Virus record (IMG/VR): IMGVR_UViG_3300036770_005754
Span: 7,472 to 71,471 of that record
Reading direction: 5' to 3' (one strand)
DNA: 64,000 nucleotides
Source: a virus
In this document: one piece after another, positions 15,406 to 35,968 of the stretch
How positions within the stretch are numbered: the stretch's first letter is position 1
Layout: the number at the start of each line of letters is the position of its first letter
Notes under the pieces: model-generated
What the model saw: the letters and a program-made list of their open reading frames with translations, nothing else
What the model was told of the DNA's origin: nothing
The model's database searches: none
Program-made: the position numbers and the translations under genes

Positions 15406-16872
15406 ATGGAACTCTACCAAACACTAACTAGAACCATCACCGAAGAAATCGACTATACTAATACACCCCCAGAAATAGTGGATAGGTTGAGACCACTCAA
15501 ATCACACGAACAAGAATGGGGAATCAGAGAATACCACAACGGAGAAAACATCGACAATATCCTAGACTCAATAGAAATCTACAACAACAACATAAGAGAT
15601 AACAGATACAACAGCATACTAGTCAGACACAACCGTAACTACAAGAACATATTCAACTACACCTCCAGAATCATCCACAGCGCCCTCACAGAATTTGAAG
15701 AACTGAGGGCCCCAAAACCCAGCAACCGCAAACTCCAAGAATCCCACAGAAACTGGAGCATTGAAGAACCGCCATACTCGGAAATACTAGTTGATAACAA
15801 CAGATTAAGAATAGTAAAAGTACAAAGGGCCGATGATACTGGGAAAGCGGCTAAAATAGCCAGCGATATGAGTCACAAATCAGAATGGTGTACGGTTAAT
15901 GTTGGAAAAGCTGATGACTACCTTAGTAGGGGTAACCTGTACTTCATTCTACTTGATGGTGAGAAGTATTTATATCATGCCGAAGCCCAACAGTTAATGG
16001 ATTTTGGGAATAGGCCTTTTAGGATTTCTGAGGAGGTTTATTATTTACTGTCAGATTATATTCCTGATATTGGTTTATTCATGGAGGATGAGCATAGCGA
16101 GATTTATAAGAATGCCGCTATAAAGTATCCTCTGGTTGCTTGTATGTATGCTCGTGACGTTCTAAGAGGCAGGTGGCCAGAAGCAGAATCAATTATAATG
16201 AAGGACCCTTTGGTTGCTTACAATTATGCTGTTGATACCATTAAAAGTAGATGGTTTGAGGCAGAACCGGCTATAATGAAGTATCCTAAGGCTGCTTGCG
16301 TGTATGCTTATAGCGTTCTAAGAGGCAGGTGGATAGAAGCAGAGCCGATTATAATCCAAGACCCTTGGTCCGCTGCCCATTATACTCATCACGTTCTCAA
16401 ACGTAGGTGGCCTGGAGCAGAACCGATAATAATGAAAGATCCGGATTCTGCTTGTGATTATGCTATTTATGTTCTTAAACGTAGATGGCCAGAAGCAGAA
16501 CCAAACATAATGAAGAACGCTGGGGCCGCTACCAATTATGCTATTAATATTCTTGAACGCAGGTGGCTGGAAGTAGAACCAATTATAATGAAGGACCCTT
16601 GGTCCGCAAACCACTACGCTAGATATGTTCTAGAACGAAGGTGGCCTGAGGCAGAACCAATTATAATGAATGATCATTGGGCTGCCTTCTATTATGCTCG
16701 GGATGTCCTTAAACGTGAATGGCCAGAAGCAGAACCAAACATAATGAAAAACCCTGGAGGGGCCCATAGTTATGCTAAATATATTCTTAAACGCAGGTGG
16801 CCAGAAGCAGAACCAAACATAATGAAAGACCCTAACGCCGCGAAGCATTACAAAGAAGACTTCGATATATGA
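15406..16872 (+). CDS. 26-aa repeat family protein, paralog 1 (9 full repeats plus capping unit)
   Basis: ~235-aa N-terminal region shared with three paralogs (contains SEWCT...LYFILLDGEKY...QLMDF), then repeats of MKDPxxAxxYAxxVLxRRWPEAEPxI. Confidence 0.9.
   Translation: MELYQTLTRTITEEIDYTNTPPEIVDRLRPLKSHEQEWGIREYHNGENIDNILDSIEIYNNNIRDNRYNSILVRHNRNYKNIFNYTSRIIHSALTEFEELRAPKPSNRKLQESHRNWSIEEPPYSEILVDNNRLRIVKVQRADDTGKAAKIASDMSHKSEWCTVNVGKADDYLSRGNLYFILLDGEKYLYHAEAQQLMDFGNRPFRISEEVYYLLSDYIPDIGLFMEDEHSEIYKNAAIKYPLVACMYARDVLRGRWPEAESIIMKDPLVAYNYAVDTIKSRWFEAEPAIMKYPKAACVYAYSVLRGRWIEAEPIIIQDPWSAAHYTHHVLKRRWPGAEPIIMKDPDSACDYAIYVLKRRWPEAEPNIMKNAGAATNYAINILERRWLEVEPIIMKDPWSANHYARYVLERRWPEAEPIIMNDHWAAFYYARDVLKREWPEAEPNIMKNPGGAHSYAKYILKRRWPEAEPNIMKDPNAAKHYKEDFDI
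16120..16860 (+). repeat. Coding tandem array of ~78-nt units
   Basis: Recurrent TGGCCAGAAGCAGAACCA core at ~78-nt spacing. Confidence 0.9.
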
Positions 16873-18011
16873 AACTGTGCCAAATACTAACCAGAACCCT
16901 CACCGAAGAAATAGACTACACCAACATACCCCCAGAAATAGCAGACAGACTAAAACCACTCAAACCACACGAACAAGAATGGGGAATCAGAGAATACCAC
17001 AACGGAGAAACCATAAACAACATCCTAGATTCCATAGAAATCTACAACAATAACATAAAAGACAACAGATACAGCAGCATACTAGCCAGACACAACCCCA
17101 ACTACAAGAACATATTCAACTACACCTCCAGGATAATCCACAGCGCCCTCACAGAATTTGAAGAACTAAGGGCACCAAAACCCAGCAACCGCAAACTCCA
17201 AGAATCCCGCAAGAACTGGAGTATTGAAGAACCACCATACTCAGAAATCCTAGTCAACAATAATAGGTTAAGAGTAATAAAAGTCAAGAGAGTCGATGAT
17301 ACTGGGAAAGCTGCTAAAATAGCTAATGACATGAGCCACAAGTCAGAATGGTGCACAGTCAATGTCGAAAAAGCAGATCATTACCTTGGCAGGGATGATT
17401 TGTACTTCATTCTGCTTGATGGTGAGAAGTACTTGTGCCATATCAAGTCTAAACAACTGATGGATTTTTGGAATAGGCCTTTTAGGATTTCCGAGGAGCT
17501 TTACCATTTACTATCAGATTATGTCCCTGATATTGGTTTATTCATCAAGGACAAACATAGTGAGATTTACAAGAATATTGTTATAAAGCACCCTAAGGCT
17601 GCTTACGATTATGCTTCACGTGTTCTTGGACGTAGATGGCCCGAGGCAGAACCAACCATAATCAAGGACCCTTTTATCGCTTATAGTTATGCTCGATATG
17701 TTCTAGATCGTCGATGGCCAGAAGCAGAACCAATCATAATGAGGGACGCTAAGGCCGCTGCCTATTATGCTCATCATGTTCTAGATCGTCGCTCCGTTGC
17801 CAGGTCGAGAATCCGCAGCCGGTGGCTCGAGGCAGAACCAATCATAATGAATGACCCTTGGGCTGCCGCCTATTATGCTATTTATGTTCTAGAACGTAGG
17901 TGGCCAGAAGTAGAACCGATGATAATGAAAGACCATAATGCTGCGAAACAGTACAAGGAGTTCTTCGGCATGCCTGGATGCTGTGAGTCATGCGAACAGT
18001 GGCTTTACTAA
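16869..18011 (+). CDS. 26-aa repeat family protein, paralog 2 (4 full repeats plus capping unit)
   Basis: Same N-terminal region and repeat consensus; ATGA overlap with paralog 1. Confidence 0.9.
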   Translation: MKLCQILTRTLTEEIDYTNIPPEIADRLKPLKPHEQEWGIREYHNGETINNILDSIEIYNNNIKDNRYSSILARHNPNYKNIFNYTSRIIHSALTEFEELRAPKPSNRKLQESRKNWSIEEPPYSEILVNNNRLRVIKVKRVDDTGKAAKIANDMSHKSEWCTVNVEKADHYLGRDDLYFILLDGEKYLCHIKSKQLMDFWNRPFRISEELYHLLSDYVPDIGLFIKDKHSEIYKNIVIKHPKAAYDYASRVLGRRWPEAEPTIIKDPFIAYSYARYVLDRRWPEAEPIIMRDAKAAAYYAHHVLDRRSVARSRIRSRWLEAEPIIMNDPWAAAYYAIYVLERRWPEVEPMIMKDHNAAKQYKEFFGMPGCCESCEQWLY

Positions 18012-18059: not shown

Positions 18060-19817
18060 TTAGCCTTGCCAACTATCACCATTATAAAACATAAGCCTAG
18101 TACCATTATACCAAAAATCACCAAATTTAGGATCTCTACCTAATAGAATTCTCAACCTTGGTAATACGTCGTTGTTGTAAGTAGTAGGGTTGTCACCTAG
18201 AGTGTCTGCGGAAACGGTCATTTTGACACAACGGTGAGCCAGAGCGCCTGTATAACCATATTTATCTATAGAAGAATTTGGCACAATCCCGACCACTGAC
18301 TCTAAGTCAATTTGATTACCTAATCCTTGGTCCTGCTCTGTGATATACCTATTAGAATCGCTAGGGTAGATAGGCACACTCAATCTTGCCGTACTACCGA
18401 CCATAGCTCTTGATTCGCCGATTGTAGGAATATATTTCGGGACTCTACTGATGCCAAAGGAACTTATTCTAGTCGAAGATTTGGAAAATTCGGTGTCGAT
18501 AGGTGATCCAACAATCGAATCAAAAGAATCAAAGAATTGATCTATATCGTTTGTAAATTTGTCCCATAAGCTTGATAAAACAACATGACCGCGTCCGAAA
18601 TGCTGGTTGAAACTAGATGATGAGCCGCCGGTAATCAACTTTAGGTTGTTAGAAGGTACTATCTCAATTATCTCGCCGTCAGTAAAACTTCTGGTTAGAT
18701 CTAAAGTCGCAAATTCAATTATTGCAGTGCTTGGAGAACCACCAACTTCTGAATCTGTTACATTGTATGTGGCGAAAAACATCCTCAATTCGTTGGTACC
18801 AGTTCCGATTCTCTCTATTCTGGAAACCCATACAGGGAAAAAGGTGCCGCTCGAATCGCCGGTAGGATTGTCTCCAGCAGGAGCAACTATGTCGAATTCT
18901 CTAAACAAACCAGCGGGAATAACTATATTATCAATTGAAGTCCTTGATGCTTTCGCATCAAAAGGATAATTGAACGATACTAGCCAAGATTGGTTGTCAC
19001 TATCTAATTGTGGTATAGCATTCCATGCACTATCTGTTAATAGACCAGTACCATGTGATAAAGATGATTCTGAAAAATCGTCTGTTACATTAGTACCACC
19101 AGGTACTGTGTCGATTATCTCGTAAATCGCAGGAAAATCATATAAACCATCAGAATTGCTGTCAGTCACATTCCCAGGAGGTGCTAGCAAATTCAGGAAA
19201 TCTCTGACAATCTCGTCGTTCGTATCAAGTGTCCTAAAAGTGATGAATCCGGTAACAGTTTCAGACTCAGTTGGACTTATGACTATAGTCTCTTCGATAG
19301 CATCAACTACCTGCAATCTCAAATACTGATAAGTCAATGCACTATCGATTTTGTAATCTGCGTAGAATATCGCCACTTCTACTGAAGAATTCTCAACGTT
19401 CCCGGTGAATATGAGTCTAAGGTCGCCTGTATACCCATTAGTCACATTATTCTCGCCCGACATCCTTTTTATCTTTGCCAATCTGAGATTCTCCCATTTC
19501 TTCGGTAGCGAAGCATGGAAATCCCATATGAACTTTGGAGGTATTTCTTCATATCCTGCATTCGAAGCGACGATCGGAGATACTAAAAATGGGAATAGGT
19601 TCTCCTTGCCGATCGCTAGTTGAAGGACATCAACTGCTTTTGCAAGGACAAGCTGTCTGACGGCTAAGTCAGCTATCGGCCTATTCAAAACTTCATAGAA
19701 TGCTGGGTCGACAGCAGTCAACCATCTAATATTCAGAGTTGGGTCTCCACCCGTGAGACTACTGAATAGCGTTCCTGGTGATTTTGTCGGGACTTTGGCT
19801 GGTGTGATAGTAGGAAT
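18060..19817 (-). CDS. Putative virion structural (tail/baseplate-type) protein; start probably at ATT 19817 rather than TTG 19721
   Basis: S/T/G-rich 553+ aa ORF among structural-type genes. Frame is open upstream of 19721; AAGGAG sits 8 nt before an in-frame ATT. Confidence 0.6.
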   Translation of the reverse strand: MPTITPAKVPTKSPGTLFSSLTGGDPTLNIRWLTAVDPAFYEVLNRPIADLAVRQLVLAKAVDVLQLAIGKENLFPFLVSPIVASNAGYEEIPPKFIWDFHASLPKKWENLRLAKIKRMSGENNVTNGYTGDLRLIFTGNVENSSVEVAIFYADYKIDSALTYQYLRLQVVDAIEETIVISPTESETVTGFITFRTLDTNDEIVRDFLNLLAPPGNVTDSNSDGLYDFPAIYEIIDTVPGGTNVTDDFSESSLSHGTGLLTDSAWNAIPQLDSDNQSWLVSFNYPFDAKASRTSIDNIVIPAGLFREFDIVAPAGDNPTGDSSGTFFPVWVSRIERIGTGTNELRMFFATYNVTDSEVGGSPSTAIIEFATLDLTRSFTDGEIIEIVPSNNLKLITGGSSSSFNQHFGRGHVVLSSLWDKFTNDIDQFFDSFDSIVGSPIDTEFSKSSTRISSFGISRVPKYIPTIGESRAMVGSTARLSVPIYPSDSNRYITEQDQGLGNQIDLESVVGIVPNSSIDKYGYTGALAHRCVKMTVSADTLGDNPTTYNNDVLPRLRILLGRDPKFGDFWYNGTRLMFYNGDSWQG

Positions 19818-19861
19818 GGCTGATGCTCCTTGTATATCTAATTAAGATAATTTTGATCTGC

Positions 19862-20776
19862 TTAAATTAGAGTAAAATCAGAAACTCCATTGCCGTCTAT
19901 CCGAATCTGACTCAAGTCCTCAATGCCTGTGATCGTAATAGTGTGTTTGCCACCAGGATTTGATGGGTTCGGGTTCGATGGATTTGGATTGTTTGGTTTA
20001 GAAGCTGGACTGCCGTACAGTCTTTGAATTCTAGGTATGTCGTCATTCTGTTGCGGTTTAGTAATACCGGCTGAATAATATGGAGCCATCAGTGCTCTCT
20101 GTGCAGAAGAATGATCTAGGCCAAGGAAGTGGCCGAATTCATGACAGGCTACATTCAGTAAGAGTATACCGCGATCTTTGGGACTCGTGACCCAGGTCTC
20201 TCCTAAATCGAATCGCATTAATAACTGGCCATTATAGTTGTTGTTCGGCGGTAAGTACGCCCAAGCCAATGTCCCGCCAGGGCCATCGAAATTACTTTGC
20301 CTACCAGAACCTGTCGAGATTATCATATTGGCTGAGTTTTTTGAAGCAACCCTAGTAATTTTAAGGTCGCAATTATCTTCCCATTGCTGATAAGCTAAGT
20401 CAAGAATATCATCTTGATCTTTTTTAGGTAATCCTGGAATATATTGTTCTACGAAATACGTCAATTGTTTCAGACCCCATCTCGAGCCCTGTGAAGCTGA
20501 TGATCTCACATAGTCTGGACACCCACACCTCGGCCACCTCATGGCTCTCACAGTCTGCTCATCCAGCTTTCCAGTCTGTGGTAAACTAAACATCTCTTGA
20601 AATTTCAGAATTGATTGTGATATATCAGCATGTAACATGCTCTTCTTCTTATCGCTGATATAATAATAATCCAGATACTGGATCGCAAAATTGCTGTCAG
20701 AATCGCTGATATTGTTGTCGCCTGCAACTTGCTTGACAAGAGTATTGGTTACTCTCGCAATCAACTGGTCACTCAT
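19862..20776 (-). CDS. Matrixin/MMP-like zinc metalloprotease (peptidase M10) with PG-binding-like prodomain and cysteine switch
   Basis: ILKFQEMFSLPQTGKLDEQT; PRCGCPD; HEFGHFLGLDH; ALMAPYY Met-turn; PNNPNPSNPNPSNP linker. Confidence 0.92.
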   Translation of the reverse strand: MSDQLIARVTNTLVKQVAGDNNISDSDSNFAIQYLDYYYISDKKKSMLHADISQSILKFQEMFSLPQTGKLDEQTVRAMRWPRCGCPDYVRSSASQGSRWGLKQLTYFVEQYIPGLPKKDQDDILDLAYQQWEDNCDLKITRVASKNSANMIISTGSGRQSNFDGPGGTLAWAYLPPNNNYNGQLLMRFDLGETWVTSPKDRGILLLNVACHEFGHFLGLDHSSAQRALMAPYYSAGITKPQQNDDIPRIQRLYGSPASKPNNPNPSNPNPSNPGGKHTITITGIEDLSQIRIDGNGVSDFTLI

Positions 20777-21155
20777 TGCTGTCTCCGATATTTGTTAGCA
20801 CTACAGAACCGTTTTGATCTATCCTGAATGACCAATCTACCACACCAAGATAAGTTTTCGTGACTGTGGCTGTGGCTGCGGCTGTTTTGGACTTCTGAGT
20901 ATTCATAGGTATATACCCACCAGTATTATCGGCGAACCTGAATTGTCGCCATCTTACTGGTGGTAGACTGTTATCCCTGACGCCGCGTAATGGTAGATCA
21001 AGGGGGTCGACACCATGATCCGAGCCAGAGCCATGATTAATCGCCTGCAATGACACTATCCTGTTTACGACCATCGGTGTGTTGAGGTGACTTTTCACAT
21101 AGTCACCAGAGATAGCCGTATTGATTGTCATCATCAATATCAAGAAATATTTCAT
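20769..21155 (-). CDS. Small hypothetical protein with N-terminal hydrophobic/signal-like segment
   Basis: MKYFLILMMTINTAISG N-terminus. Confidence 0.55.
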   Translation of the reverse strand: MKYFLILMMTINTAISGDYVKSHLNTPMVVNRIVSLQAINHGSGSDHGVDPLDLPLRGVRDNSLPPVRWRQFRFADNTGGYIPMNTQKSKTAAATATVTKTYLGVVDWSFRIDQNGSVVLTNIGDSNE

Positions 21156-21156
21156 A

Positions 21157-21486
21157 TCATTTTGCCCAGTGGTTGGTTATTTTAGATTTGCGAATCACGA
21201 CGTTGTTCGAGATGAATGGACTAGGTTGATTAATTGCCGCATATTCTGAAAATGGACTCTTGTAGCTATCGCCAATTTGCGGCAGTGGGCCCATATTTTG
21301 ATTGAAATTGAATGGTCTAGTCTTTAATGGTGCGACAGCCATAGGTGGCCTATCTATTTTAAGAGGCTTCAAATTCACCGGCATTATTAGATTATTGATA
21401 ACATTCGTATTGTTGACGACTTTAACCTCATGGTCTCCAGCTACCGCTGCTGCAGCCATGATCATAAATATTAATATAGTTTTCAT
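21157..21486 (-). CDS. Small hypothetical protein with signal-peptide-like N-terminus
   Basis: MKTILIFMIMAAAAVAG; start placed at the second ATG, after GAGGA. Confidence 0.55.
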   Translation of the reverse strand: MKTILIFMIMAAAAVAGDHEVKVVNNTNVINNLIMPVNLKPLKIDRPPMAVAPLKTRPFNFNQNMGPLPQIGDSYKSPFSEYAAINQPSPFISNNVVIRKSKITNHWAK

Positions 21487-21497
21487 TTTAAACATCC

Positions 21498-22565
21498 TCA
21501 ATTAAAGATTATCCGCCACCTGACGACGATTTCGAAGTCCTCTGATTTTTTGACAGGCGTTTTTAGAATCCTATGTGAAAAAATCTTAAAACCGTCTCTA
21601 AGAATGCCGATTGGACCAACCAACGGAATATTATCACCATCAACTGGGACTCTGTCGACGACAATATCATGCCCGCCTGGTGCTTTGTTTATCACTAGAT
21701 AATATGGGTTTAATTGGTTCAATGTATCATCATCAGAGATCGTCACGTCTCTTGCAACAATCTTTATTTGGTCGCCTTCTTTGATCAAGTCTGGGTTCAT
21801 GACTGACGGGTCTAAGGAAACTGTGGTTGCACCACTGGCGGATGCTGGTAAAGACACGCCATTCTCACCAGTCATAAATATTTCACGGGGTGGGCACTCA
21901 CAACTGCCGACATTTCCGATCTCAGCCGCACCAACCAGTGCTACCTCCGTTATTGTAAAGAAGTCTCCTGACGTTATGCCGAAACCATTGTATTCACTTT
22001 TGAGTAATGTCGTCTCGAAGACTACTATGTTGTTGACAGCTCTGATATCATCCTGCAATAGGGGCGTACCAGAAGGCTGGTAACTGCTCTCAAAGAATAT
22101 TCTCTCTATTCTTTTGAGAGGTCTAGTTGGCTCTGAGATAGGTATCGGATTTATGAGATCTCCACCATATTCGGCACCCACACCTAATGTAACAGGAATT
22201 GAACCACCACTTATGGAGTCGACTATATAAAATCTTTCGTCAGTCGAGTCTAACGGATTACCATCTTCTCCGAACGAAGCACCAAACACGATGTATTTGG
22301 CAGCGAACTCGTCTATATCAATATCGTGCGTTACCCAATCGCCTGCACCACCATTGGCATTTATGTCCCAAACTTTGTGGTATGGTAGCCTATGTGAGAT
22401 CATTTCTTTGGCGAAAATTTTGATAATATTAGGTTGATATATTGTGTTTATTATTCTGCCATGTTTGTCTTTTATTATGAATTCAATTTCACCTTTATAG
22501 GTACGTATCTTGTGCCCATTTGCATCTGAGCCAAGCCCATATTGATCTTGCAATTTTGCTTTCAT
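21498..22565 (-). CDS. Putative virion structural (tail/baseplate) protein
   Basis: GEIEFIIKDKHG...NII, ITEVALVG and C-terminal FSHRILKTPVKKSEDFEIVVRWRI resemble phage tail-collar/baseplate-type proteins. Confidence 0.55.
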   Translation of the reverse strand: MKAKLQDQYGLGSDANGHKIRTYKGEIEFIIKDKHGRIINTIYQPNIIKIFAKEMISHRLPYHKVWDINANGGAGDWVTHDIDIDEFAAKYIVFGASFGEDGNPLDSTDERFYIVDSISGGSIPVTLGVGAEYGGDLINPIPISEPTRPLKRIERIFFESSYQPSGTPLLQDDIRAVNNIVVFETTLLKSEYNGFGITSGDFFTITEVALVGAAEIGNVGSCECPPREIFMTGENGVSLPASASGATTVSLDPSVMNPDLIKEGDQIKIVARDVTISDDDTLNQLNPYYLVINKAPGGHDIVVDRVPVDGDNIPLVGPIGILRDGFKIFSHRILKTPVKKSEDFEIVVRWRIIFN

Positions 22566-22572
22566 TGTTTTC

Positions 22573-23199: not shown

Positions 23200-23211
23200 A
23201 TAGCCCCTCCA

Positions 23212-23219
23212 TATTTATA
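23212..23219 (-). promoter_or_regulatory. T4-type late promoter-like TATAAATA
   Basis: Exact TATAAATA on the minus strand, 13 nt upstream of the ATG at 23199, followed by GGAGG. Confidence 0.4.
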
Positions 23220-23224
23220 TACTA

Positions 23225-27331: not shown

Positions 27332-27370
27332 TATTAGGCGGCAGCTCAAAAATATTCGTAGGAGGTATAT

Positions 27371-29560
27371 ATGCGCAGTGTCATTTCGAAGCTCAATAGA
27401 AGACTACGACCAATATTTGAATCATCCGCAGAACCAGTAGAGCATATATGGTGGAAGAGCCCTGACTCACCAGATTATAACAGGCAATTGGCAGAAGATG
27501 CTTTATATCATACAATAGGCCCCCTTACAAATAACCCCAGATGGGCATCAGAATGGACCAGCAAGAGTGAGCCTGTGCCAGGATTCGTTGGTGGTGGCCC
27601 AGCACCAAGATGGGACGAACATGAAATAACAATGGCTATGGCTGGTGATCAGTCTTACCAAAGAGGGCCAATGAGCCCAAAAGGTTCTCCAATATATAGA
27701 TTAGCTATGAAAACAGCTAGAAAATTTGGTAGAGAAAATGACCAAGATTTAATAGCTGACTTCTATGCTAATGGTCTCCTGAGACTCGCCACCTTAATGA
27801 AGCCAGGATATGACCAATCGAGAAGTACATTTATACAATATGCACTCCCATATATCAGAAGTGCGATGGATACAGGCACTGGTAAGACTCTTGCAACACA
27901 AGCAGCAGCTGGTTTCAGAAGCGAAGGTGGGATAGTGGGCTTCAAAGGTCTTCTCGACTATAATATCACACAAGGAGACCCTGAAAGAATCCGTAAAATC
28001 GCAACGCAAATAAAAGGGAAATACAGAGAGCAGAGGAGTCATGACAAAGACAAAGGCAACCCATTAGGACCATATTCAAAGGCTTTTTGGGAACTAGCTA
28101 ACGCATATGCAGACGCACTTGAATCCGATAATGAAGACCGCATCGAGGCAATACGTCATCAAATAGGCCAAAAGATAGAGGAAATAGAATCAGAGTCGAC
28201 TGTCCTTGGTGCACGACTTGGCATAGGCCAAGCTATGACGGATCCGACTAGAAAAACGCCAATGAAGATTGTGAGCGTAGATGCTCCTATGGGTGACGAC
28301 GAAGGTTCGTCCACAATCGCTGGATCACTAGAATCCAAAAAAGAAGATGAAGCGGAATGGATAACACCGCAAGTAATCAATAAAGTGCTTATGATGGCAT
28401 TGGACGAAGAATGGATGAAATACACTGCTATCAAAATGAAGTCCGACAAAAAACTTGCAGCATTCGCAGTAGAGAAATTGGGGCTAACAGAAGTAATTAA
28501 CGAACCACTGACAGCCAATGAGTTTAGGTTCGTCATCAGAACCCTGGGCACGATCGCGTCAGAGTATCCCGGAAAAGGCGTGGTCAGAAAGAATATCAAT
28601 ATGCCCAGGAACTCCAAAGGGTGGTGGAAGCCTGGTGAAGATCCTGAAATAGAACCATTTTCATACGTGAAAAAAGGTACCAATGAGAGAATACAAAAAA
28701 TGTGGAAATCAAGATGGGCCACAGGACGTAAAGATCCAGGGCAAGATCCGAATGAGCCATATAAGAAAATGAATAACACGGAAATAATGAGAGAGATGTT
28801 CGCAGAAAATGACGAGTTCAGAAGACTAGCAATACGAACTGCTACGCCAGTGAAAAAAGATCAGATCGCCGAAAAGTATGCTGAATACTTCGGCAGACTA
28901 TTAGACACGAGAAACCCTGAGGAACTGGCTAAAATTCGTTCTGAATATATGGCGGTATACCCTGAAAACGATCGATATTATCACTACATCAATACTAACA
29001 TACCAAGATACATAGCGGCCCTAAAGAAAAGGGACAATAAAACAATAGAGAGATATAATAAAGAATTCAGGACTAAATTTGATATGAACTCTGGAGAAGT
29101 CACTAGAGTGACGGGTTTCAGTCCCGTAACAATCGGCGAGCAGTTAAACAGAGCTTTAAATAAATTAAAAATAATAGTATTCTCAGAACGCAGAGATCTT
29201 GAAGACCCACAAGTAATCAAACCATCAAAATTGAAAGCCAGCGAACCAGAAGGTCCAGCGCTAGCTGAAGAATTACACAGATCACATCCAATTGACAGAG
29301 AATTAATCATAGAAGCTTGTGAATGGATGTGCTCAAAAATCGAATCAGTATTAAATGAGAAATCACCGCCGGGGTGGAAGAAGACAGTCGAACATATGAA
29401 AGAAAAGGGGATGACTGAAAAAGAAGCGTTCTCAAGAGCTTGGGCCACACATAAGAAGGGTGGGTCGAGGCCCGACAGAAGAAAGAAAAATAAATACTAT
29501 GTTGAAAGTTCAATGAAGCCAATTGATTCAATATCGGATGACATATATGAAATTGAATGA
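27371..29560 (+). CDS. Highly divergent, insertion-rich sigma70-like protein
   Basis: Region 2-like TARKF...DLIAD...NGLLRL...GYDQSRSTFIQYALPYIRSAM; region 3.2-like IVSVDAPMGDDEGSSTI; region 4-like LTANEFRFVIRTLG, MNNTEI, TIGEQLNRALNKLK. Confidence 0.55.
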   Translation: MRSVISKLNRRLRPIFESSAEPVEHIWWKSPDSPDYNRQLAEDALYHTIGPLTNNPRWASEWTSKSEPVPGFVGGGPAPRWDEHEITMAMAGDQSYQRGPMSPKGSPIYRLAMKTARKFGRENDQDLIADFYANGLLRLATLMKPGYDQSRSTFIQYALPYIRSAMDTGTGKTLATQAAAGFRSEGGIVGFKGLLDYNITQGDPERIRKIATQIKGKYREQRSHDKDKGNPLGPYSKAFWELANAYADALESDNEDRIEAIRHQIGQKIEEIESESTVLGARLGIGQAMTDPTRKTPMKIVSVDAPMGDDEGSSTIAGSLESKKEDEAEWITPQVINKVLMMALDEEWMKYTAIKMKSDKKLAAFAVEKLGLTEVINEPLTANEFRFVIRTLGTIASEYPGKGVVRKNINMPRNSKGWWKPGEDPEIEPFSYVKKGTNERIQKMWKSRWATGRKDPGQDPNEPYKKMNNTEIMREMFAENDEFRRLAIRTATPVKKDQIAEKYAEYFGRLLDTRNPEELAKIRSEYMAVYPENDRYYHYINTNIPRYIAALKKRDNKTIERYNKEFRTKFDMNSGEVTRVTGFSPVTIGEQLNRALNKLKIIVFSERRDLEDPQVIKPSKLKASEPEGPALAEELHRSHPIDRELIIEACEWMCSKIESVLNEKSPPGWKKTVEHMKEKGMTEKEAFSRAWATHKKGGSRPDRRKKNKYYVESSMKPIDSISDDIYEIE

Positions 29561-30782
29561 TGCAGTTACAGCATCTGTGATGGAGTCAAACCTCTTCACG
29601 ATAAATGAAGAAGACGAAGGACCACGATGGCAATTTAATTACAACGGTAAAAAAGTAACGGACTTCAACCCAGACATACTACTACTGGGGGCTTATAAAC
29701 ATCCGACTACAGGTAACAATCTCATAGGCGGTATAAATCTGAACTACATATCGCCTAAACAAAGAGACCAAATAGCTTACGCACTACCGCAAATAATAAA
29801 TGCTGAGAACCTACTAGAAAGGTACTGGATCGGAAGAAGTCTACTCCCAGAAATATTTAAAAATTATTACAGAACATATAATCCAAAATATATCAGAGGA
29901 GTTAAAAAGGACGTCATGTATCCGAAGTACGGATACCTAAAATCTGCACAAAACTGGGCAAAAAAGAAGATAGGCAGTATATTTAAATCCAAAGAACAAA
30001 GGTCGAAAGAACTAGAACCGAAGTATCGTGAAGACCTGGCTGCCATGTCAGATAAACTGGATCAAGTGGTATCACAATTATCACAAGATCAAGAGACGAA
30101 CACGCCAGAAGTGCAAGCAGCAATGAGAGCTGCAAAAGATTTCCAACGCCAAAAATCAGTGCGAGAAATAGGACGCCAAGAAATAGAACCACTGAGAACA
30201 GCACGACGAGATCTAGAAGCAGCACAACAAGAGCCAGGAATGCAACCTCCAGAGGAATATGAAAACTCTGAAGTAGGAGCCGGAATGCTTCCGAAAAAGC
30301 TGGAGAGCCGTCCTAGAAGACGACCGGCAATCAGGCCGCTTAAAAGACAAAAAGAACCAACGGAACCAACGGGAGGGCTCCCAGCGGTGTCTCCACCAAG
30401 AATGGAAAAGCCTGGCGATACAGAACAGCCGACCCTTCGACCATCGCCAAGTGAACCAAGAAATAGAAGACCAATAGGCAGATCCACACCAGAAGACGCA
30501 ATAAACAGACCGAGAAGGCCAATAGGCAGGCCATCGCCAGAAGACACGACCGAAAGACCAAAAAGGCCAATTGGTAGACCATCGCCAGAAGACACAATCG
30601 AAAAACCAAAAAGACCAATTGGTAGGTCATCGCCAGACACAATAAAAAAAAGACCGACAAAACGTCAAACACCACCAGCAGTGGATAACGAGATAGACCC
30701 AGACATAGATCTTCAAGAGTCTATTATATATTACTCTCCCGTCGCAGGTCATTACATAATAGAGCATTTCGAATTATCATGA
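29547..30782 (+). CDS. T4 gp2 (DNA end protector)-like N-terminal domain plus Pro/Arg-rich repeat tail
   Basis: PDILLLG...IGGINLNYISPKQR and YRTYNPKYIRG resemble the gp2 GLNLHYL motif; start reassigned to MKLNDAV. Confidence 0.45.
   Translation: MKLNDAVTASVMESNLFTINEEDEGPRWQFNYNGKKVTDFNPDILLLGAYKHPTTGNNLIGGINLNYISPKQRDQIAYALPQIINAENLLERYWIGRSLLPEIFKNYYRTYNPKYIRGVKKDVMYPKYGYLKSAQNWAKKKIGSIFKSKEQRSKELEPKYREDLAAMSDKLDQVVSQLSQDQETNTPEVQAAMRAAKDFQRQKSVREIGRQEIEPLRTARRDLEAAQQEPGMQPPEEYENSEVGAGMLPKKLESRPRRRPAIRPLKRQKEPTEPTGGLPAVSPPRMEKPGDTEQPTLRPSPSEPRNRRPIGRSTPEDAINRPRRPIGRPSPEDTTERPKRPIGRPSPEDTIEKPKRPIGRSSPDTIKKRPTKRQTPPAVDNEIDPDIDLQESIIYYSPVAGHYIIEHFELS
30468..30656 (+). repeat. Four ~48-nt coding repeats (RPIGRPSPEDTxERPK)
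   Basis: AGACCAATAGGCAG / AGGCCAATAGGCAG / AGGCCAATTGGTAG / AGACCAATTGGTAG at 48-nt spacing. Confidence 0.85.
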
Positions 30783-31121
30783 ATCAACACTACCAATAAA
30801 TATCTTTAAAGTAAAATGCTTAGGCTTACTGTATGAAACTTTTATAGGTATGTGCGACATACCATACTCATCAGTTGTTCCGGTATAAATAATATCACGC
30901 TCATGAAGCTCCCAGCGAAATCTATTAGCAGCGTCGCCACGATACTTTACAGCCATAACGGTCTCAATACCTAGCGTACCACCGACAGGTGTCGGCTGCT
31001 TCATCCCATTATATGGTTTAGTCCTAACTACACGTTCGATGTTCACATAAACTTCATTTTTAGCTTCATCAATTAAATCATAACCAAGATTTTGGAATCT
31101 AAATTCAACGAATTCTGTCAT
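30777..31121 (-). CDS. Hypothetical protein
   Basis: 114-aa ORF coupled to the large structural-type gene. Confidence 0.6.
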   Translation of the reverse strand: MTEFVEFRFQNLGYDLIDEAKNEVYVNIERVVRTKPYNGMKQPTPVGGTLGIETVMAVKYRGDAANRFRWELHERDIIYTGTTDEYGMSHIPIKVSYSKPKHFTLKIFIGSVDS

Positions 31122-33586
31122 GTAATCTCCAGTTGACCATAAGTGAACTCGCTGAACACAGTGGCCTGAGTGCGTATGTCGACTCTCCTAATCTTCGCAC
31201 CAGGCCACATCCTCAAACCATTCTTACCAAATTGTCTATTGGGGTTGAGAGTAATCGGGAAGTATGGTGTATCAATCGACACTGAAGTTGGCAGCGCCGC
31301 ACTCAAAGTGGGACTCGGCGGTATAAGCAAACGATTCCACCAGATCCATAATTGATCATCCTTCACCAATACTTCCAATCTGTTCCAATATTCTTCTTGT
31401 AGTCCGCCAATTTGTGCTCCACCATCGTATACCACAAAGCCACTAGGAGATGATTGTGGTTGCGTACCGACTCCAGTGAAAGTACCTGACTGAGAATAAA
31501 TTGCACTCACAGCATATCCGGGTGTTAGCCCCCTTACAAAATCATCTGAATCATCATCAAATATATCATCCTCATATGGTAAGCTCATGTCCAAAATACC
31601 CACCTTGAATTGCAATTGTGTTAAACCTGTTGCTTCGTCGAATGTAAATTCAACGCGAACGACCGTTGAATTATATTCTTGGTGAAGGAGTTCTAAAATA
31701 TCGTCGACGGAACCAGGATATTCATCATTGTTTAGAGAATCACCAGCTAGGATGATATTATCACAATTAGCAGGATAACCACTGGTTAGTTCAGTACCTG
31801 AACTCGATGGGAACATGAATTTTCGATAATAGTTGTAAATCTTGTTATGGTTCTCACCGGGCGATATTACTCTCACCGACCCGAATGGCGGCAAATCATT
31901 GAAATGTACACCACAAACTCTAATATAATTTAGGCCATTCACTTGGCCAGTGCCTATAACACGCATGTATTTGTTCTCATTCTCGTCGATCTGGGCCCTT
32001 ACAACTAAATCGATTGGAGAGAACGAAGAGTTATCTGGCCTACCTATATCCACTCTTGTTAAGGTATTGCAAAAGTTCTTTCTATGCCATAACCATACCG
32101 GTCTTTCACTGAAATCAGCAATCGCATCTTGAGATGATTGGACGACCAAGCCAGGTAGCGTATTATCAATAAAAGCACGATGCTGCTGACTAATATCAGC
32201 GTCTCCTGTCCCTGCTGTCGAAGCTATATCATACCACATCAATGGGTCATCATACCCAGTTAGGCCCCACACACTGCGTTCAAAATCTCTGATCGCGGTC
32301 ACTTGTGTCGAAGAATACTTATCTTCACTACCGGGTCCAGCTAAAATTTCTTCTCTAGCTATAGCGGAATCACCAAACTGAGTAAACCCGGACCATGTCC
32401 AAATATTATTAGGATTTAACGATGGTTTCTTGTTGAAGTAATGTCTAGATATTGGTTCTCCAGCTATTTCTCCTATCTTAAAGGACCATAGGTCCACCAG
32501 AGTACCAACAGGTAACAAATCTATCGTAGAATCGAGTACGATAGACTGAGAGTTAGACCCGGACTGTGGGTTTTCAGGATTGACGTATTGCCAGATATTC
32601 CTGGCCGTGAACGTGTCGCCGACAGCCCTGGCCCCATCTACATCCCACTCTCTCAAAACATATTGATTGGTGCTGAGAATAGCATCTGTATAACTGGTTA
32701 TTACAGCCATCTTCTTGGTTATTAGATGCCCCTTATACAGCAGAGAGCCAAGTAGGCCTGGTTCGGAGCTTGGGTCTAGATCGAATCGTATCTGTGAGCC
32801 ATCGTTGTCCTTCCCCATGAACCAGACCATCTCAGGAACACCGGCGGCCCCCGGGGTCATTGCCCAACCTATTTCTGTAACCATAGAATTGAGCGGATCT
32901 CTCTTCAATATCATCTCATGTTCAGCGACTCCTGGGACTATAGTATCATCGAACCTTTTGAATATGAATGCAGGGTAATTCCCTTTATTATTCAGTGTCG
33001 ATGAAGGATTGCTTGGGTTTACAATCGTCGATTCTGGGAACAAATAAACCTTCATTTCACCATATGAGTTGACGCCCGGTAGTTTCCCAGCACATGTCGG
33101 TGGCCTAACGGATGATATGTCAGTTTCATCTTGGACCCAAAATATTTGTTGGCACGTTTCGCAGGCACAATTAAGAGGTATTGGACTATCGACTGTAAAT
33201 CTAACTACATTGCCTATTCGTTCGATGCTTATAAATTCTGTGCCGGCCGCAAGTATAATATCTCCTTGCATCCAGCCACCATCGTCTGGAAATCCTGCAC
33301 CTTGGAATCCTAATACACCAAGTCTAGTTTGCAATAATGCATCAAGTTTGCATTTGTCGTCGGCGGCCATCAATCCTGGCGTATCACATGTCGCTATCGG
33401 AACTGGGTCCTCCGCGATATGTGTGACACCATGGAATGTTGGAAACAACACCTGAGATTCTTTCATGTACAATGCTCTCTGTTGAGCATCATACTGATAG
33501 CCAGTGGTTATTCCATTTGGTCCCGATACTTGAACGTACTGCCTGTCAACTAATGTCGAGGCCGATGGAACTTTTGATATGGCCAT
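31118..33586 (-). CDS. Large putative virion structural (tail/baseplate) protein
   Basis: 822-aa ORF; AGGAG upstream; GLMAADDKCKLD motif of fibre-type proteins; beta-rich. Confidence 0.55.
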   Translation of the reverse strand: MAISKVPSASTLVDRQYVQVSGPNGITTGYQYDAQQRALYMKESQVLFPTFHGVTHIAEDPVPIATCDTPGLMAADDKCKLDALLQTRLGVLGFQGAGFPDDGGWMQGDIILAAGTEFISIERIGNVVRFTVDSPIPLNCACETCQQIFWVQDETDISSVRPPTCAGKLPGVNSYGEMKVYLFPESTIVNPSNPSSTLNNKGNYPAFIFKRFDDTIVPGVAEHEMILKRDPLNSMVTEIGWAMTPGAAGVPEMVWFMGKDNDGSQIRFDLDPSSEPGLLGSLLYKGHLITKKMAVITSYTDAILSTNQYVLREWDVDGARAVGDTFTARNIWQYVNPENPQSGSNSQSIVLDSTIDLLPVGTLVDLWSFKIGEIAGEPISRHYFNKKPSLNPNNIWTWSGFTQFGDSAIAREEILAGPGSEDKYSSTQVTAIRDFERSVWGLTGYDDPLMWYDIASTAGTGDADISQQHRAFIDNTLPGLVVQSSQDAIADFSERPVWLWHRKNFCNTLTRVDIGRPDNSSFSPIDLVVRAQIDENENKYMRVIGTGQVNGLNYIRVCGVHFNDLPPFGSVRVISPGENHNKIYNYYRKFMFPSSSGTELTSGYPANCDNIILAGDSLNNDEYPGSVDDILELLHQEYNSTVVRVEFTFDEATGLTQLQFKVGILDMSLPYEDDIFDDDSDDFVRGLTPGYAVSAIYSQSGTFTGVGTQPQSSPSGFVVYDGGAQIGGLQEEYWNRLEVLVKDDQLWIWWNRLLIPPSPTLSAALPTSVSIDTPYFPITLNPNRQFGKNGLRMWPGAKIRRVDIRTQATVFSEFTYGQLEIT

Positions 33587-33656: not shown

Positions 33657-34823
33657 TCAGAGTTCTTCTGGCAACTTGAAGTACGCTCTATACAGCTTTG
33701 CGGTCCAAGGGTCCTTCATTATTGTTGGTTCTGCTTCTTGCCATCTACGTCCAAGAACATATCGAGCATAACTATAAGCGATAATAGGTTGATTCATTAT
33801 TACCGGCTCCGCTTCTGGCCATCTGCGTTTAAGGGCTTTTTCAGCGTAATTGGCAGCAGATCGAGGGTCTTGGATTATGGTTGGCTCTGCTTCTGGCCAT
33901 TCACGTTTAAGAATATAACAGGCATAGGCAGAAGCAGCCGTGGGGTTCTTTACTATGATCGGTTCTGCTTCTGGCCATCTGCGTTTAAGAACACTAATGG
34001 TGTATAAGAACACAGCCTCTGGATCCTTCAGTATAATTGGTTCTACCTCAGGCCACTCACGTTTAAGAACATGCCGAGCATAATCACAAGCAGCCTGGGG
34101 ATGCTTGATCATAGCATTCTTATAAATCTCGCTGTGCTTATCCTTCATGAATAAACCAACATCAGGCACATAATCTGATAGTAAATAGTAAACCCCCTCC
34201 GAAATCCTAAAAGGCCTATTCCTAAAATCCATCAGCTGATTAGATTGTATGTGACACAAGTACTTCTTACCATCAAGCAGAATGAAGTACAGATCATCCT
34301 TGCCAAGGTAATCATCTGCTATTTCGACATTGACTGTGCACCATTCGGTTTTGTTGCTTATGTCACTGGCTATTTTAGCAGCTTTGCCAGTATCGTCGAC
34401 TCTCTGTACTTTTATTATTCTTAGTCTATTATTATTGACTAGGATTTCTGAGTATGGTGGTTCTTCAATACTCCAGTTCCTGCGGGATTCTTGGAGTTTT
34501 CTATTGCTGGGTTTTGGTGCCCTTAGTTCTTCAAATTCTGTGAGGGCGCTGTGTATTATTCTGGAGGTGTAGTTGAATATGTTTTTATAGTTGGGGTTGT
34601 GTCTGGCTAGGATTTTACTGTATCTGTTGTCTCTTATATTATTATTGTATATGGCGATTGAGTCTAGGATGTTGTTGATGTTTTCTCCGTTGTGATATTC
34701 TTTGATTCCCCATTCTTGTTCGTGTGGTTTGAGTGGTTTTAGTCTTTCCGCTATTTCTGGGGGTATGTTAGTGTAGTCTATTCCTTCGGTGAGGGTTCTG
34801 GTTAGTATTTGGCAGAGTTTCAT
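33657..34823 (-). CDS. 26-aa repeat family protein, paralog 3 (5 full repeats plus capping unit)
   Basis: Same N-terminal region and RWPEAEP repeats as 15406 and 16869. Confidence 0.9.
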   Translation of the reverse strand: MKLCQILTRTLTEGIDYTNIPPEIAERLKPLKPHEQEWGIKEYHNGENINNILDSIAIYNNNIRDNRYSKILARHNPNYKNIFNYTSRIIHSALTEFEELRAPKPSNRKLQESRRNWSIEEPPYSEILVNNNRLRIIKVQRVDDTGKAAKIASDISNKTEWCTVNVEIADDYLGKDDLYFILLDGKKYLCHIQSNQLMDFRNRPFRISEGVYYLLSDYVPDVGLFMKDKHSEIYKNAMIKHPQAACDYARHVLKREWPEVEPIILKDPEAVFLYTISVLKRRWPEAEPIIVKNPTAASAYACYILKREWPEAEPTIIQDPRSAANYAEKALKRRWPEAEPVIMNQPIIAYSYARYVLGRRWQEAEPTIMKDPWTAKLYRAYFKLPEEL

Positions 34824-35968
34824 ATGTTGAAGTGTTCCTTATACTCGTATGCGGCATTAGGGTCTTTCATTATGTTTGGTTCTACTTCTGGCCATCTATG
34901 TCCAAGAACATGAATAGCATAATAGGCGGCAGCCCAAGGGTTTTTTATTATGTTTGGCTCTGCTTCTGGCCATCTACGTTTAAGAACATGAATAGCGTAT
35001 TGCGTAGCAGTCCAGGGGTCCTTCATTATGGTTGGTTCTGCTTCTGGCCATGTATTTTTAATAACCTGCCAAGCGTACCAATTAGCAATAGCACTCTTCA
35101 TTATGATCGACTCTGCTTCTGGCCACCTACGTTTAAGAACATGCTTAGCGTACTCAGAAGCAGCATAAGGGTCCTTCATTATGATCGGCTCTGCTTCTGG
35201 CCACCTACGTTTAAGAACATGCTTAGCGTACTCAGAAGCAGCATAAGGGTCCTTCATTATAGTATTCTTATAAATCTCGCTGTCGATCCACACGAATAAA
35301 CCAACATCAGGCACATAATCTGACAACAAATAATAAACCTCCTCAGAAATCATAAAAGACTCATTCCAGAAATCCATTAGTTGTTTAGATTGTATGTGAC
35401 ACAAGTACTTCTCACCATCAAGCAGAATGAAGTACAGATCATCCTTGCCAAGGTAATCATCTGCTTTCTCGACATTGACTGTGCACCATTCGGTTTTGTG
35501 ACTCATATCGCTAGCTATTTTAGCCGCTTTACCAGTATCGTCGACTCTCTGTACTTTTATTATTCTTAGTCTATTATTATTGACTAGGATTTCTGAGTAT
35601 GGTGGTTCTTCAATACTCCAGTTCCTGCGGGATTCTTGGAGTTTGCGATTGCTGGGTTTTGGTACCCTTAGTTCTTCAAATTCTGTGAGGGCACTGTGTA
35701 TTATTCTGGAGGTGTAGTTGAATATGTTTTTATAGTTGGGGTTGTGTCTGGCTAGTATGCTGCTGTATCTGTTGTCTTTTATGTTGTCATTGTATATGGC
35801 GATTGAGTCTAGGATGTTGTTGATTGTTTCTCCGTTGTGGTATTCTTTGATTCCCCATTCTTGTTCGTGTGGTTTGAGTGGTTTTAGTCTTTCCGCTATT
35901 TCTGGGGGTATGTTGGTGTAGTCGATTCCCTCGGTGAGGGTTCTGGTTAGTATTTGGCAGAGTTTCAT
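34820..35968 (-). CDS. 26-aa repeat family protein, paralog 4 (5 repeats plus capping unit)
   Basis: Same family; first two repeats nearly identical in DNA; ATGA overlap with paralog 3. Confidence 0.9.
   Translation of the reverse strand: MKLCQILTRTLTEGIDYTNIPPEIAERLKPLKPHEQEWGIKEYHNGETINNILDSIAIYNDNIKDNRYSSILARHNPNYKNIFNYTSRIIHSALTEFEELRVPKPSNRKLQESRRNWSIEEPPYSEILVNNNRLRIIKVQRVDDTGKAAKIASDMSHKTEWCTVNVEKADDYLGKDDLYFILLDGEKYLCHIQSKQLMDFWNESFMISEEVYYLLSDYVPDVGLFVWIDSEIYKNTIMKDPYAASEYAKHVLKRRWPEAEPIIMKDPYAASEYAKHVLKRRWPEAESIIMKSAIANWYAWQVIKNTWPEAEPTIMKDPWTATQYAIHVLKRRWPEAEPNIIKNPWAAAYYAIHVLGHRWPEVEPNIMKDPNAAYEYKEHFNI

Follow-up and report, generated by a model that had tools for sequence, protein, structure and literature searches.

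A constant head with a hypervariable 26-residue repeat: a family of possible target-recognition proteins in a large T4-type phage

Introduction

Why should a phage carry tandem copies of a gene whose products share a nearly constant N-terminal domain and differ chiefly at a few positions of a short repeat? The question is raised by IMG/VR record IMGVR_UViG_3300036770_005754, a viral contig of 176,558 bp with a CheckV completeness of ~49%. A stretch of 64,000 nucleotides, bases 7472-71471 of the contig, was analysed and is called the window below; positions refer to it unless given as genome positions. Four such genes lie in the window, and each encodes a head domain followed by an array of units of 26 amino acids (aa).

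Our answer to this question is tentative and, taken as a whole, has slightly less than an even chance in our estimation: these would be modular target-recognition proteins of a large T4-type phage, in which a constant head carries a hypervariable solenoid and which may be packaged in the virion. One component, that the array is a variable binding scaffold, is probably correct, judging from the predicted structure and the pattern of sequence conservation. The evidence for each component and the alternatives that it admits are considered in turn.

Results and Discussion

The paralog family

Across the whole contig the family has seven members in three tandem clusters of two, two and three genes, with four genes inside the window, three outside it and 37 repeat units in total. 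The proteins are 361-488 aa long and share one architecture: a 13-residue leader (MKLCQILTRTLTE), a two-lobed head of ~225 aa, four to nine units of 26 aa and a cap. A preliminary sequence-only reading had described four open reading frames (ORFs) in the window with 9, 4, 5 and 5 units and a shared cap. All four are present at exactly the coordinates it gave and the counts and cap stand; what it overlooked were three further full-length paralogs outside the window, a ten-residue insertion (SVARSRIRSR) in the second gene and a unit of 25 aa in the fourth. The copies and their parts are as follows.

15406..16872, plus strand: paralog 1 (P0001, 488 aa); its stop overlaps the ATG of paralog 2 (ATGA)
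15406-15444, plus strand: paralog 1, leader, aa 1-13
15445-16119, plus strand: paralog 1, head, aa 14-238
16120-16821, plus strand: paralog 1, nine 26-aa units, aa 239-472
16822-16869, plus strand: paralog 1, cap, aa 473-488
16869..18011, plus strand: paralog 2 (P0002, 380 aa)
16869-16907 and 16908-17582, plus strand: paralog 2, leader and head
17583-17924, plus strand: paralog 2, four units, aa 239-352, the third with the 10-aa insertion
17925-18008, plus strand: paralog 2, cap and Cys-rich tail
33657..34823, minus strand: paralog 3 (P0003, 388 aa), the protein used for the full-length model
34823-34785 and 34784-34110, minus strand: paralog 3, leader and head
34109-33720 and 33719-33660, minus strand: paralog 3, five units (aa 239-368) and cap
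34820..35968, minus strand: paralog 4 (P0004, 382 aa), with an ATGA overlap with paralog 3
35968-35930 and 35929-35258, minus strand: paralog 4, leader and head
35257-34871 and 34870-34823, minus strand: paralog 4, five units (aa 238-366; unit 3 of 25 aa) and cap
Genome 103123-104208, minus strand: paralog outside the window, from the whole-contig search, four units
Genome 104438-105541, minus strand: paralog outside the window, from the whole-contig search, four units
Genome 105538-106944, minus strand: paralog outside the window, from the whole-contig search, seven units

Stop and start codons overlap as ATGA within the clusters, and the junction ('...KxHFNI-stop/ATG') has itself been duplicated. 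The paralog at genome 104438-105541 ends prematurely (..RRRPEANTP*), and a non-coding remnant of a cap and ATGA junction lies beyond it (genome 104208-104438); this copy has therefore been truncated by mutation.

The repeat unit

Units were anchored on W19-x-E21-x-E23, which gave the 37 units, and per-column entropy was taken over the 36 that are in register. The repeat signature is DPxxAxxYAxxV[IL]xxRWPEAEPxI, and its 78-bp period is recovered from the DNA by Tandem Repeats Finder with 66-82% matches. Y10, W19, E23 and I26 are invariant, and A7, A11, L15 and E21 have entropies of at most 0.31 bit. At the other extreme, columns 5, 9, 8, 12, 6 and 13 reach 3.44, 3.35, 3.04, 2.91, 2.29 and 2.23 bits, with 7-15 residue types each, while columns 25, 3 and 16 are semi-variable. 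The entropies thus confirm the nearly fixed framework and the six variable columns that had been proposed earlier.

This pattern of variability is a property of the family and not of this genome alone, because the same columns vary or stay fixed among 187 units from 69 ORFs on other viral contigs. There, variability peaks in columns 5, 6, 9, 12 and 13 (3.2-3.7 bits), column 8 has only 2.2 bits, columns 16-17 rise to ~2.4-2.6 bits and the set of framework columns is identical. Tyr (13%), Ala (12%), His (10%), Ser (8%) and Trp (5%) are prominent at the variable positions of the present family; a composition rich in Tyr, His, Ser and Trp is typical of binding sites and unlike that of an ordinary exposed helix surface.

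Units 1 and 2 of paralog 4 differ at one of 60 framework bases and have identical variable codons. Such near-identity implies a very recent duplication, and the number of units is therefore still changing. In the single subsurface-metagenome run containing the locus, which is probably its source, contigs fragment in the paralogs, and what look like variants result from cross-mapping of one copy to another.

Predicted structure of the array

The 388-aa paralog was modelled with AlphaFold2 using 51 homologs; its mean predicted local distance difference test score (pLDDT) is 92.3, with values of ~98 throughout the array. Each modelled unit consists of helix A (positions 4-15, 12 residues), a loop (16-19, usually K-R-R/E-W) and helix B (20-26, 7 residues, PEAEPxI). 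The tandem two-helix units stack as a solenoid, the arrangement that defines repeats of the HEAT/ARM type. On a helical wheel, positions 5, 6, 8, 9, 12, 13 and 16 fall at about -60 to +100 degrees and A7, Y10, A11, V14 and L15 at 140 to 280 degrees. In the model, then, the variable residues occupy a 160-degree arc of helix A, on the side away from its packing face. This geometry supports the one-sided spacing suggested earlier from sequence, and the predicted array is a regular solenoid rather than one with buried or scattered variable columns, an outcome that would have told against a scaffold.

Searches with the predicted fold returned generic alpha-solenoids only. The matches of the array found by VIA were to a designed peptide-binding repeat (7ue2, Z 7.5), symplekin (7.1-7.4), PP2A-A (7.2), alphaRep (4.7-4.9) and PUF (4.9), all of which fall under the Z of ~13 below which the tool itself declares matches of helical repeats uninformative. 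Foldseek found no match of the array in the PDB at E <= 0.001, and the Pfam profiles HEAT, HEAT_2, HEAT_PBS and Arm did not match P0001-P0004 at E up to 1. Sub-threshold partial matches of DUF982, HTH_35, FF, YunG-like, ClpS and Frd.3 to the YAxxVIxxRWPEAE motif were judged spurious.

A regular series of short units, each with two to six specificity positions and a conserved basic K16-R17-R18, could also be a modular reader of nucleic acid, comparable to TALE, PUF or PPR proteins. Each unit would then recognise one base, leaving the head to act on the DNA or RNA so bound. The small alphabet of columns 9 and 13, encoded mostly by NAT codons (N/D/Y/H), would suit such a code, and weak structural matches to PUF and TALE/BurrH arrays were obtained (Z 3.3-4.9). 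These matches are, however, no better than those to generic HEAT proteins. The arrays are also near neutral (net charge -5 to +6 over 125-252 aa), the framework probably pairs R17/R18 with E21/E23, and six positions with 7-15 residue types exceed the needs of a base code. We regard a nucleic-acid reader as highly improbable and keep to the variable binding scaffold in what follows.

Selection and the origin of the variation

Head and array have evolved under contrasting constraints. Across all 21 paralog pairs (225 codons) the head has a ratio of non-synonymous to synonymous change (dN/dS, or omega) of 0.09-0.17 at dS 0.2-0.8, with identities of 82-91% in protein and 83-94% in DNA. Between units, all-pairs omega (based on pN/pS, the corresponding ratio of proportions) is 0.75 in variable, 0.35 in semi-variable and 0.14 in framework columns. 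Among nearest-neighbour unit pairs it is 0.96 in variable and 0.22 in framework columns, and the two classes differ in their counts of non-synonymous and synonymous changes (Fisher p = 2e-12). A uniform dN/dS would have spoken against the scaffold; what was found is strongly non-uniform, low in head and framework and high in the variable columns.

Because the synonymous rate inside variable codons is hard to estimate, dN of the variable columns was also set against outside proxies. The ratio is 1.7 relative to the dS of held-out framework columns (range 0.8-2.9 over 40 splits) and about three relative to the distance at four-fold sites (1.08 vs 0.36). Framework codons are position-specific (CCT for Pro4 as against CCA for Pro20/Pro24, GCT for Ala7/Ala11 as against GCA for Ala22); their synonymous sites are therefore far from saturation, whereas variable codons are saturated. 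In a related phage, ten 206-aa paralogs in a tandem array have an omega of 0.06 in their N-terminal 55 codons and of 1.74 in the variable columns. Purifying selection is thus, at the least, not acting on the variable face, and diversifying selection probably is.

Two other sources of the variation deserve mention, namely dedicated mutagenesis by a diversity-generating retroelement and the unconstrained drift of a structural spacer with no role in binding. A local omega of ~1 at the variable columns would suit either, and the restriction of hypervariation to a few codons resembles the target regions of retroelements. No RVT_1 match at E <= 1 was found in the 176.6 kb of this record, which is ~49% complete and in which a template repeat was not searched for. 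The variation, moreover, extends over 37 units in 7 genes with no single template, and all four bases change at codon positions 1 and 2 of the variable codons. A retroelement is unlikely because a reverse transcriptase was not found and the changes are not adenine-specific. Drift, for its part, leaves unexplained both the enrichment of the exposed face in aromatic residues and His and the fact that, across hundreds of units and alongside an expansion of unit number in many phages, variation keeps to one set of columns. We consider mutagenesis or drift of this kind very unlikely indeed.

In the youngest paralog pairs the framework dS of the array (0.5-0.8) exceeds the dS of the head (0.22-0.25). 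On this evidence either the heads have been homogenised by gene conversion or arrays have been swapped between copies.

The head domain

A model of residues 1-238 (pLDDT 87) comprises a disordered leader (1-12), a helical lobe (22-116) and an alpha/beta lobe (125-238). W161-C162 is invariant in 59/59 and in 100/100 sequences, and Y172, Q/E196, D/N199 and D/N202 are nearly so. No model in Pfam, PHROGs or NCBIfam matches the head or the repeat. This agrees with the earlier impression that the repeat belongs to no characterised family: separate profile searches with repeat and head matched none, and from one relative to another the arrays vary in both number and sequence. A sequence-profile search of the PDB gave nothing below E 0.1, and Foldseek against the PDB gave nothing for the head at E <= 0.001. 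An all-against-all comparison with solved structures (VIA) peaked at Z 5.2, below the stated noise level of the tool.

What does recur is a weak likeness of the alpha/beta lobe to the first half of GNAT, MYST and ESCO acetyltransferases, with residues ~121-221 aligning to sidF (Z 5.2), HAT1, RimL, ESCO1 and KAT6A at Z 3.4-5.2. The Acetyltransf profile matched neither the paralogs nor the 59 head sequences. A likeness of the head to E2/UBC and IpaH proteins (E 0.1-1) was set aside, as the strand order does not fit.

These features admit a second interpretation of the whole family, as thiol enzymes of host takeover that work unpackaged in the cytoplasm. The head would use Cys162, as an acyl- or group transferase or a protease, and the array would select the substrate of each paralog. 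The invariant W161-C162, the conserved polar residues (Q/E196, D/N199, D/N202) on the strands that follow and the repeated, if weak, GNAT/MYST/ESCO matches would accord with this, as would the position of the first gene pair behind genes of nucleotide metabolism (thymidylate kinase and dUTPase) and the parallel with the enzyme-plus-repeat architecture of leucine-rich repeat (LRR)-NEL effectors. Against this, the top fold match lies within the noise, and the lobe has neither the second half of the GNAT fold nor its P-loop-like motif A. There is no Cys-His-Asp triad either, because His191 occurs in only 35/59 head sequences. An enzyme would, furthermore, leave unexplained why the leader is conserved and retained even in headless relatives, and why a homolog was detected in virions of phage PA5oct. 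A family of thiol enzymes seems to us rather unlikely.

To return to the modular recognition protein, one indication of how the head is used comes from its relatives. Searched against 1.84 billion cluster representatives (50% identity), the head profile matched 11,302 at E <= 0.001 and 1,286 at E <= 1e-30. In 100 head-bearing cluster proteins, Pfam detects arrays of HEAT (5), DUF4116 (2, E 2.5e-66), LRV, LRV_2, WG_beta_rep and HEAT_2 behind the head; further partners, of the LRR and ankyrin types, were seen in ESM Atlas and BFVD. Because the same head precedes HEAT, DUF4116, LRV, LRR and WG-beta arrays in relatives, it is, as far as domain order in sequence can tell, a constant module behind which phages place varied binding scaffolds. 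The earlier proposal of a variable scaffold on an effector domain is therefore upheld for the scaffold, by structure, dN/dS and profile searches, and not for the 'effector', since the head has no recognisable catalytic fold; it could equally be a packaging or anchoring module. The constant N-terminus had been correctly described and its WCT...LY.I...QLMD motif does recur in large-phage proteins, as the matches of the head profile show, but the conserved leader and the interchangeability of the scaffold behind the head had gone unnoticed.

In giant predicted proteins of 1,200-2,700 aa (P0122-P0142), two to five heads alternate with arrays of BspA-type LRR or WG-beta repeats. Such proteins could be genuine polyproteins; alternatively, gene calling may have joined tandem genes, as could happen in phages with a recoded stop codon.

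A switch in wobble bases, previously remarked on in this locus, is real and present in all seven head copies. Codons 1-110 end in A or C in 88% of cases (G 5%, T 7%), and codons 166-235 end in G or T in 70%. It is found in the three copies outside the window and, within it, in these regions:

15406-16110, plus strand: paralog 1
16869-17570, plus strand: paralog 2
34823-34120, minus strand: paralog 3
35968-35260, minus strand: paralog 4

The switch is kept despite a dS of 0.2-0.8, and no other stretches of 60 codons in the genome are as extreme. It is weaker in some relatives (L022, L038, L043, L045), and other genes of this genome have a bias towards A/C- or G/T-ending codons along their whole length.

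Distribution

The repeat occurs predominantly in uncultured phages. A homolog search with the repeat proteins returned 231 proteins, almost all metagenomic, and the repeat was located at 114 loci on viral contigs, many of them 190-479 kb long. Head and repeat occur together in ~100/121 retrieved homologs, and the repeat also occurs without the head in some relatives. Searches of 50,697 GenBank phages with tblastn, using the whole paralog and the array, gave no match. Outside phages, a few bacterial proteins have the repeat fused to an AAA ATPase of the CbbX/SpoVK/EccA type; EccA carries a TPR domain at the place where these proteins have the repeat. A degenerate WPEAEPxI DNA pattern gave only single matches per locus in bacterial genomes, one weak unit-like match in each of ten loci, and no array or head. 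Gene neighbourhoods, inspected for one bacterial relative with the AAA fusion and for a relative of 72 kb, were uninformative, and the papers searched contained no description of the head or repeat family.

Tandem expansion is the rule in this family. Six head-plus-array genes stand in a row on a 250-kb contig and at least seven on a 50-kb contig. On IMG/VR contig 3300035181_001867 (84,887 bp; L009, L023), ~30 consecutive headless genes, translationally abutting and encoding 180-362 aa, share an identical type of 59-aa N-terminus (MKLRDLFEAMDLYKYHSNPE...) followed by 4-11 repeat units; to our knowledge this is among the largest tandem paralog arrays in phage contigs. One relative of 1,675 aa has more than 20 units.

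Among cultured phages the head is found in jumbo phages only. The PA5oct group of Pseudomonas phages has one copy each, as does Caulobacter phage CcrBL9, and Salicola phage SCTP-2 has seven, six of them clustered (MF360958, 29.5-42.5 kb) beside a gene for an RpoH-like sigma factor. No head homolog was found in RaK2, phage G or 121Q.

The leader and possible packaging in the virion

Six of the seven paralogs begin with MKLCQILT[RK]TLTE (the MKLCQILTRTLTE type) and the seventh with MELYQTLTRTITE; one copy may be extended upstream. Among 148 head-family proteins, K or R occupies position 2 in 64% and a hydrophobic residue position 3 in 63%. The motif [LIVMF]-x-E ends at residues 7-14 in 115 of the 148, compared with 10-37 in five control windows. 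Headless relatives start MKLRDLFE... and have the motif in 30/81, compared with 6-7/81 in control windows. In both models the leader is the sole N-terminal segment of low confidence (residues 1-12, pLDDT <50).

The leader resembles the T4 capsid-targeting sequence: leaders of about ten residues ending in (L/I)-x-Glu, the form present in these paralogs, are typical of T4 internal proteins. T4 ipII and ipIII, both annotated 'internal virion protein' (NC_000866), begin MKTYQEFIAE in the record. Mullaney and Black reportedly showed that T4 gp21 cuts behind (L/I)xE and that proteins need no more than the leader to be loaded into the capsid. The present genome encodes a major capsid protein of the gp23 type (E 1.1e-80) and a Peptidase_S77 prohead protease (E 6.3e-18). 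The coiled-coil scaffold and the acidic protein encoded beside the capsid gene start MDKIVALLE and MKRLALE, respectively. S77 is also present in four of five other large contigs carrying the family.

An indirect link to virions comes from PA5oct. Its homolog EST35_0205 matches the head profile at E 4.8e-46, is annotated 'structural protein, ESI-MS/MS' and lies directly after a terminase-like gene, inside a run of structural proteins annotated from mass spectrometry (MS). The published account of this phage (PMC7318152) reports that 93 proteins are linked to the virion and that its prohead protease is like that of T4. By analogy with T4, packaging of the family proteins in the capsid and their injection are thus possible, though we would put the chance somewhat short of even.

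Presence in virions could also mean presence on their surface. In that case the proteins would be decoration or accessory adhesins, anchored by the head on capsid, neck or tail, with the array binding ligands of the host surface or the environment. The PA5oct homolog is encoded near neck and head-completion genes as well as being virion-associated (PMC7318152), and the BspA-type LRR and WG-beta repeats of relatives are typical of surface binders. A variable face rich in Trp, Tyr, His, Asn and Asp would suit sugars too, and the in-window pairs flank an unannotated block that includes a metalloprotease with a PG-binding domain. However, a putatively cleavable leader of the capsid-targeting type speaks for a position inside the capsid, solenoids of the HEAT-like kind seldom serve as extracellular adhesins, the proteins have no fibre, Ig-like or baseplate-attachment domain, and the head is missing from RaK2 and 121Q, which share the virion architecture of PA5oct. 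Adhesins are, in our judgement, decidedly unlikely.

A proposed mode of action

Under the interpretation that we prefer, modular target recognition with possible packaging, the array would be a rigid HEAT-like alpha-solenoid of 26-aa helix-loop-helix units. Its core would be built by A7, Y10, A11, V14, L15, W19, A22 and I26 together with the R17/R18-E21/E23 charges, and the outward face of helix A (positions 5, 6, 8, 9, 12, 13 and partly 16) would form one continuous surface, rich in Tyr, His, Trp, Ser, Asn and Asp and distinct between units and between paralogs. As this face differs among paralogs, the seven proteins would present seven different binding surfaces, most likely for proteins. 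The head would provide a common function; strong purifying selection, and perhaps gene conversion as well, would keep it constant. Such a division into one constant module and a swappable recognition module would follow the logic of F-box/PRANC adaptors and LRR-NEL effectors.

The leader, M-K/R-hydrophobic...hydrophobic-x-Glu, would act like a T4 capsid-targeting sequence. The proteins would be loaded into the prohead, trimmed after the Glu by a gp21-type protease and ejected with the DNA, so as to bind host factors, e.g. defence proteins, at entry. T4 IPI* and the P1 Dar proteins act by this packaged-and-ejected route. That the targets here are host defence proteins is doubtful. The most complete version, in which capsids carry a diversified, antibody-like repertoire of binders, with a different paratope in each paralog, that is injected and neutralises the first host defence or regulatory protein to be encountered, and in which the head is a common delivery or effector module that can take any type of repeat scaffold, we think unlikely.

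Several observations should temper even the more cautious form of this proposal. Firstly, exposure of the variable face was deduced from helix boundaries and wheel geometry, and omega at the variable columns, when the local synonymous rate is used, is 0.75-0.96 and not above 1, so neutral drift or a mere lack of constraint at an exposed face is possible. Secondly, the case for packaging has weaknesses. An N-terminus with hydrophobic-x-Glu is not enriched genome-wide (18% of ORFs vs 13% under the null), the leader could be merely the first structural element of the head, and the C-terminus of the PA5oct homolog is not the 26-aa repeat. The PA5oct relatives RaK2 and 121Q do without the head, and a search upstream of the clusters for the T4 late promoter (TATAAATA) gave nothing above chance. 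The list of PA5oct proteins detected by MS also includes seven 'virion-unrelated enzymes' (PMC7318152), so contamination is possible. Lastly, the invariant Cys hints at a chemistry of which the proposal makes no use.

Genomic neighbourhood

A T4-type head module runs from window 63444-64000 on to genome 70915-75268 and encodes a gp23-like capsid protein, the scaffold (a coiled coil of 238 aa), the S77 protease and the acidic protein (427 aa, very acidic, with (DEDMD)n repeats). A homolog of the terminase large subunit lies at genome ~79742-81382. Within the window, the neighbours of the paralogs include:

13191-13892 and 14130-14657, plus strand: thymidylate kinase and dUTPase, upstream of the first paralog pair
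19862-20776, minus strand: matrixin-type metalloprotease (Peptidase_M10, E 7e-33) with an N-terminal PG_binding_1 domain
30467-30637: 48-bp tandem repeat, 3.6 copies with 82% matches, within the ORF 29523-30782
35978-37651, minus strand: HNH-endonuclease/helix-turn-helix protein, directly upstream of the second paralog pair

The Pfam match bears out an earlier assignment of the matrixin with its PG-binding domain. It is the only Pfam match among the nine large ORFs between the in-window pairs (18060-33586), none of which has a PHROG match, and the label 'structural' once given to this block could not be confirmed. Scans for sigma-70 promoters and terminators near the clusters gave nothing above chance.

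Significance

The head is one of the larger protein families without a model in Pfam, PHROGs or NCBIfam, and the 26-aa repeat is almost wholly confined to uncultured phages. Naming the two would annotate thousands of 'hypothetical' genes of large phages, and PA5oct offers a cultured model for the head domain. If our interpretation is correct, it shows a route by which phages arrive at panels of specificities, through a constant module, swappable scaffolds, tandem gene expansion and a fast-changing face, comparable to the ankyrin/F-box families of giant viruses. Should the proteins be injected, they would be candidates for a new and diversified class of counter-defence. The short, regular unit with its six tolerant positions is, in addition, a natural template for designed binders.

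Comparison with known systems

The closest structural parallels of the array are HEAT-like binders (PBS-HEAT repeats of natural proteins, alphaRep, which was derived from such repeats, and the arrays of PP2A-A and symplekin), which likewise form a stacked helix-turn-helix rod with a fixed hydrophobic framework and a few hypervariable positions on one face. They provide its best structural matches, although weak ones (Z 7.5 at most, under the noise level of the tool). The present unit differs in its length of just 26 aa and in having its own signature, to which no HEAT, HEAT_PBS, ARM or TPR profile matches. In alphaRep the variable positions are on the second helix, whereas the variable face of the phage repeat is the longer first helix.

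Among families defined by sequence, PcfJ (PF14284) is the only named one that recurs among the fold matches of the head (Foldseek E 0.0017-0.24). PcfJ-like phage models have template-modelling (TM) scores of 0.22-0.27, and matches in AFDB were found at E 0.015 and 0.14; PcfJ has a conserved HCV motif at the place of WC[TV] in the head. The PcfJ profile matched nothing in this genome at E <= 10 and none of 59 head sequences. DUF4116 (PF13475) forms arrays behind the same head in relatives (E 2.5e-66), and the profile of its 49-position repeat has no match in this genome at E <= 10. Both are themselves families of unknown function. T4 Frd.3 (PF05798) was rejected as a relative: it has no match in this genome at E <= 10, and two relatives pass its cut-off only through the summing of the short motif Yxxx[IV]IxxR[YW]PE over their units, a motif of which T4 Frd.3 has one.

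With the T4 internal proteins IPI/IPII/IPIII and Alt, the family shares the short leader ending in hydrophobic-x-Glu (MKLCQILTRTLTE as compared with MKTYQEFIAE), a T4-type capsid protein and S77 protease in the same genome, the character of accessory, fast-evolving, multi-copy genes and the finding of one homolog in virions. It differs in having no similarity to them in sequence or fold and in being far larger (361-488 aa) and modular. The inner-body paralog families of phiKZ and the Dar proteins of P1 are comparable packaged-protein systems.

In its overall organisation the family resembles the ankyrin-PRANC/F-box proteins of poxviruses and giant viruses and the IpaH/SspH LRR-NEL proteins, where a conserved module is combined with a diversified array in large in-genome paralog families; the phage head is likewise joined to interchangeable types of repeat. 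In the phage proteins, however, the constant module comes first in the chain and has no F-box, BTB or NEL fold, and the presumed host, a bacterium, would have no ubiquitin system. That an expanded family of viral genes can carry a hypervariable repeat scaffold is already known in principle; this head and this repeat are described neither in the profile libraries nor in the papers searched.

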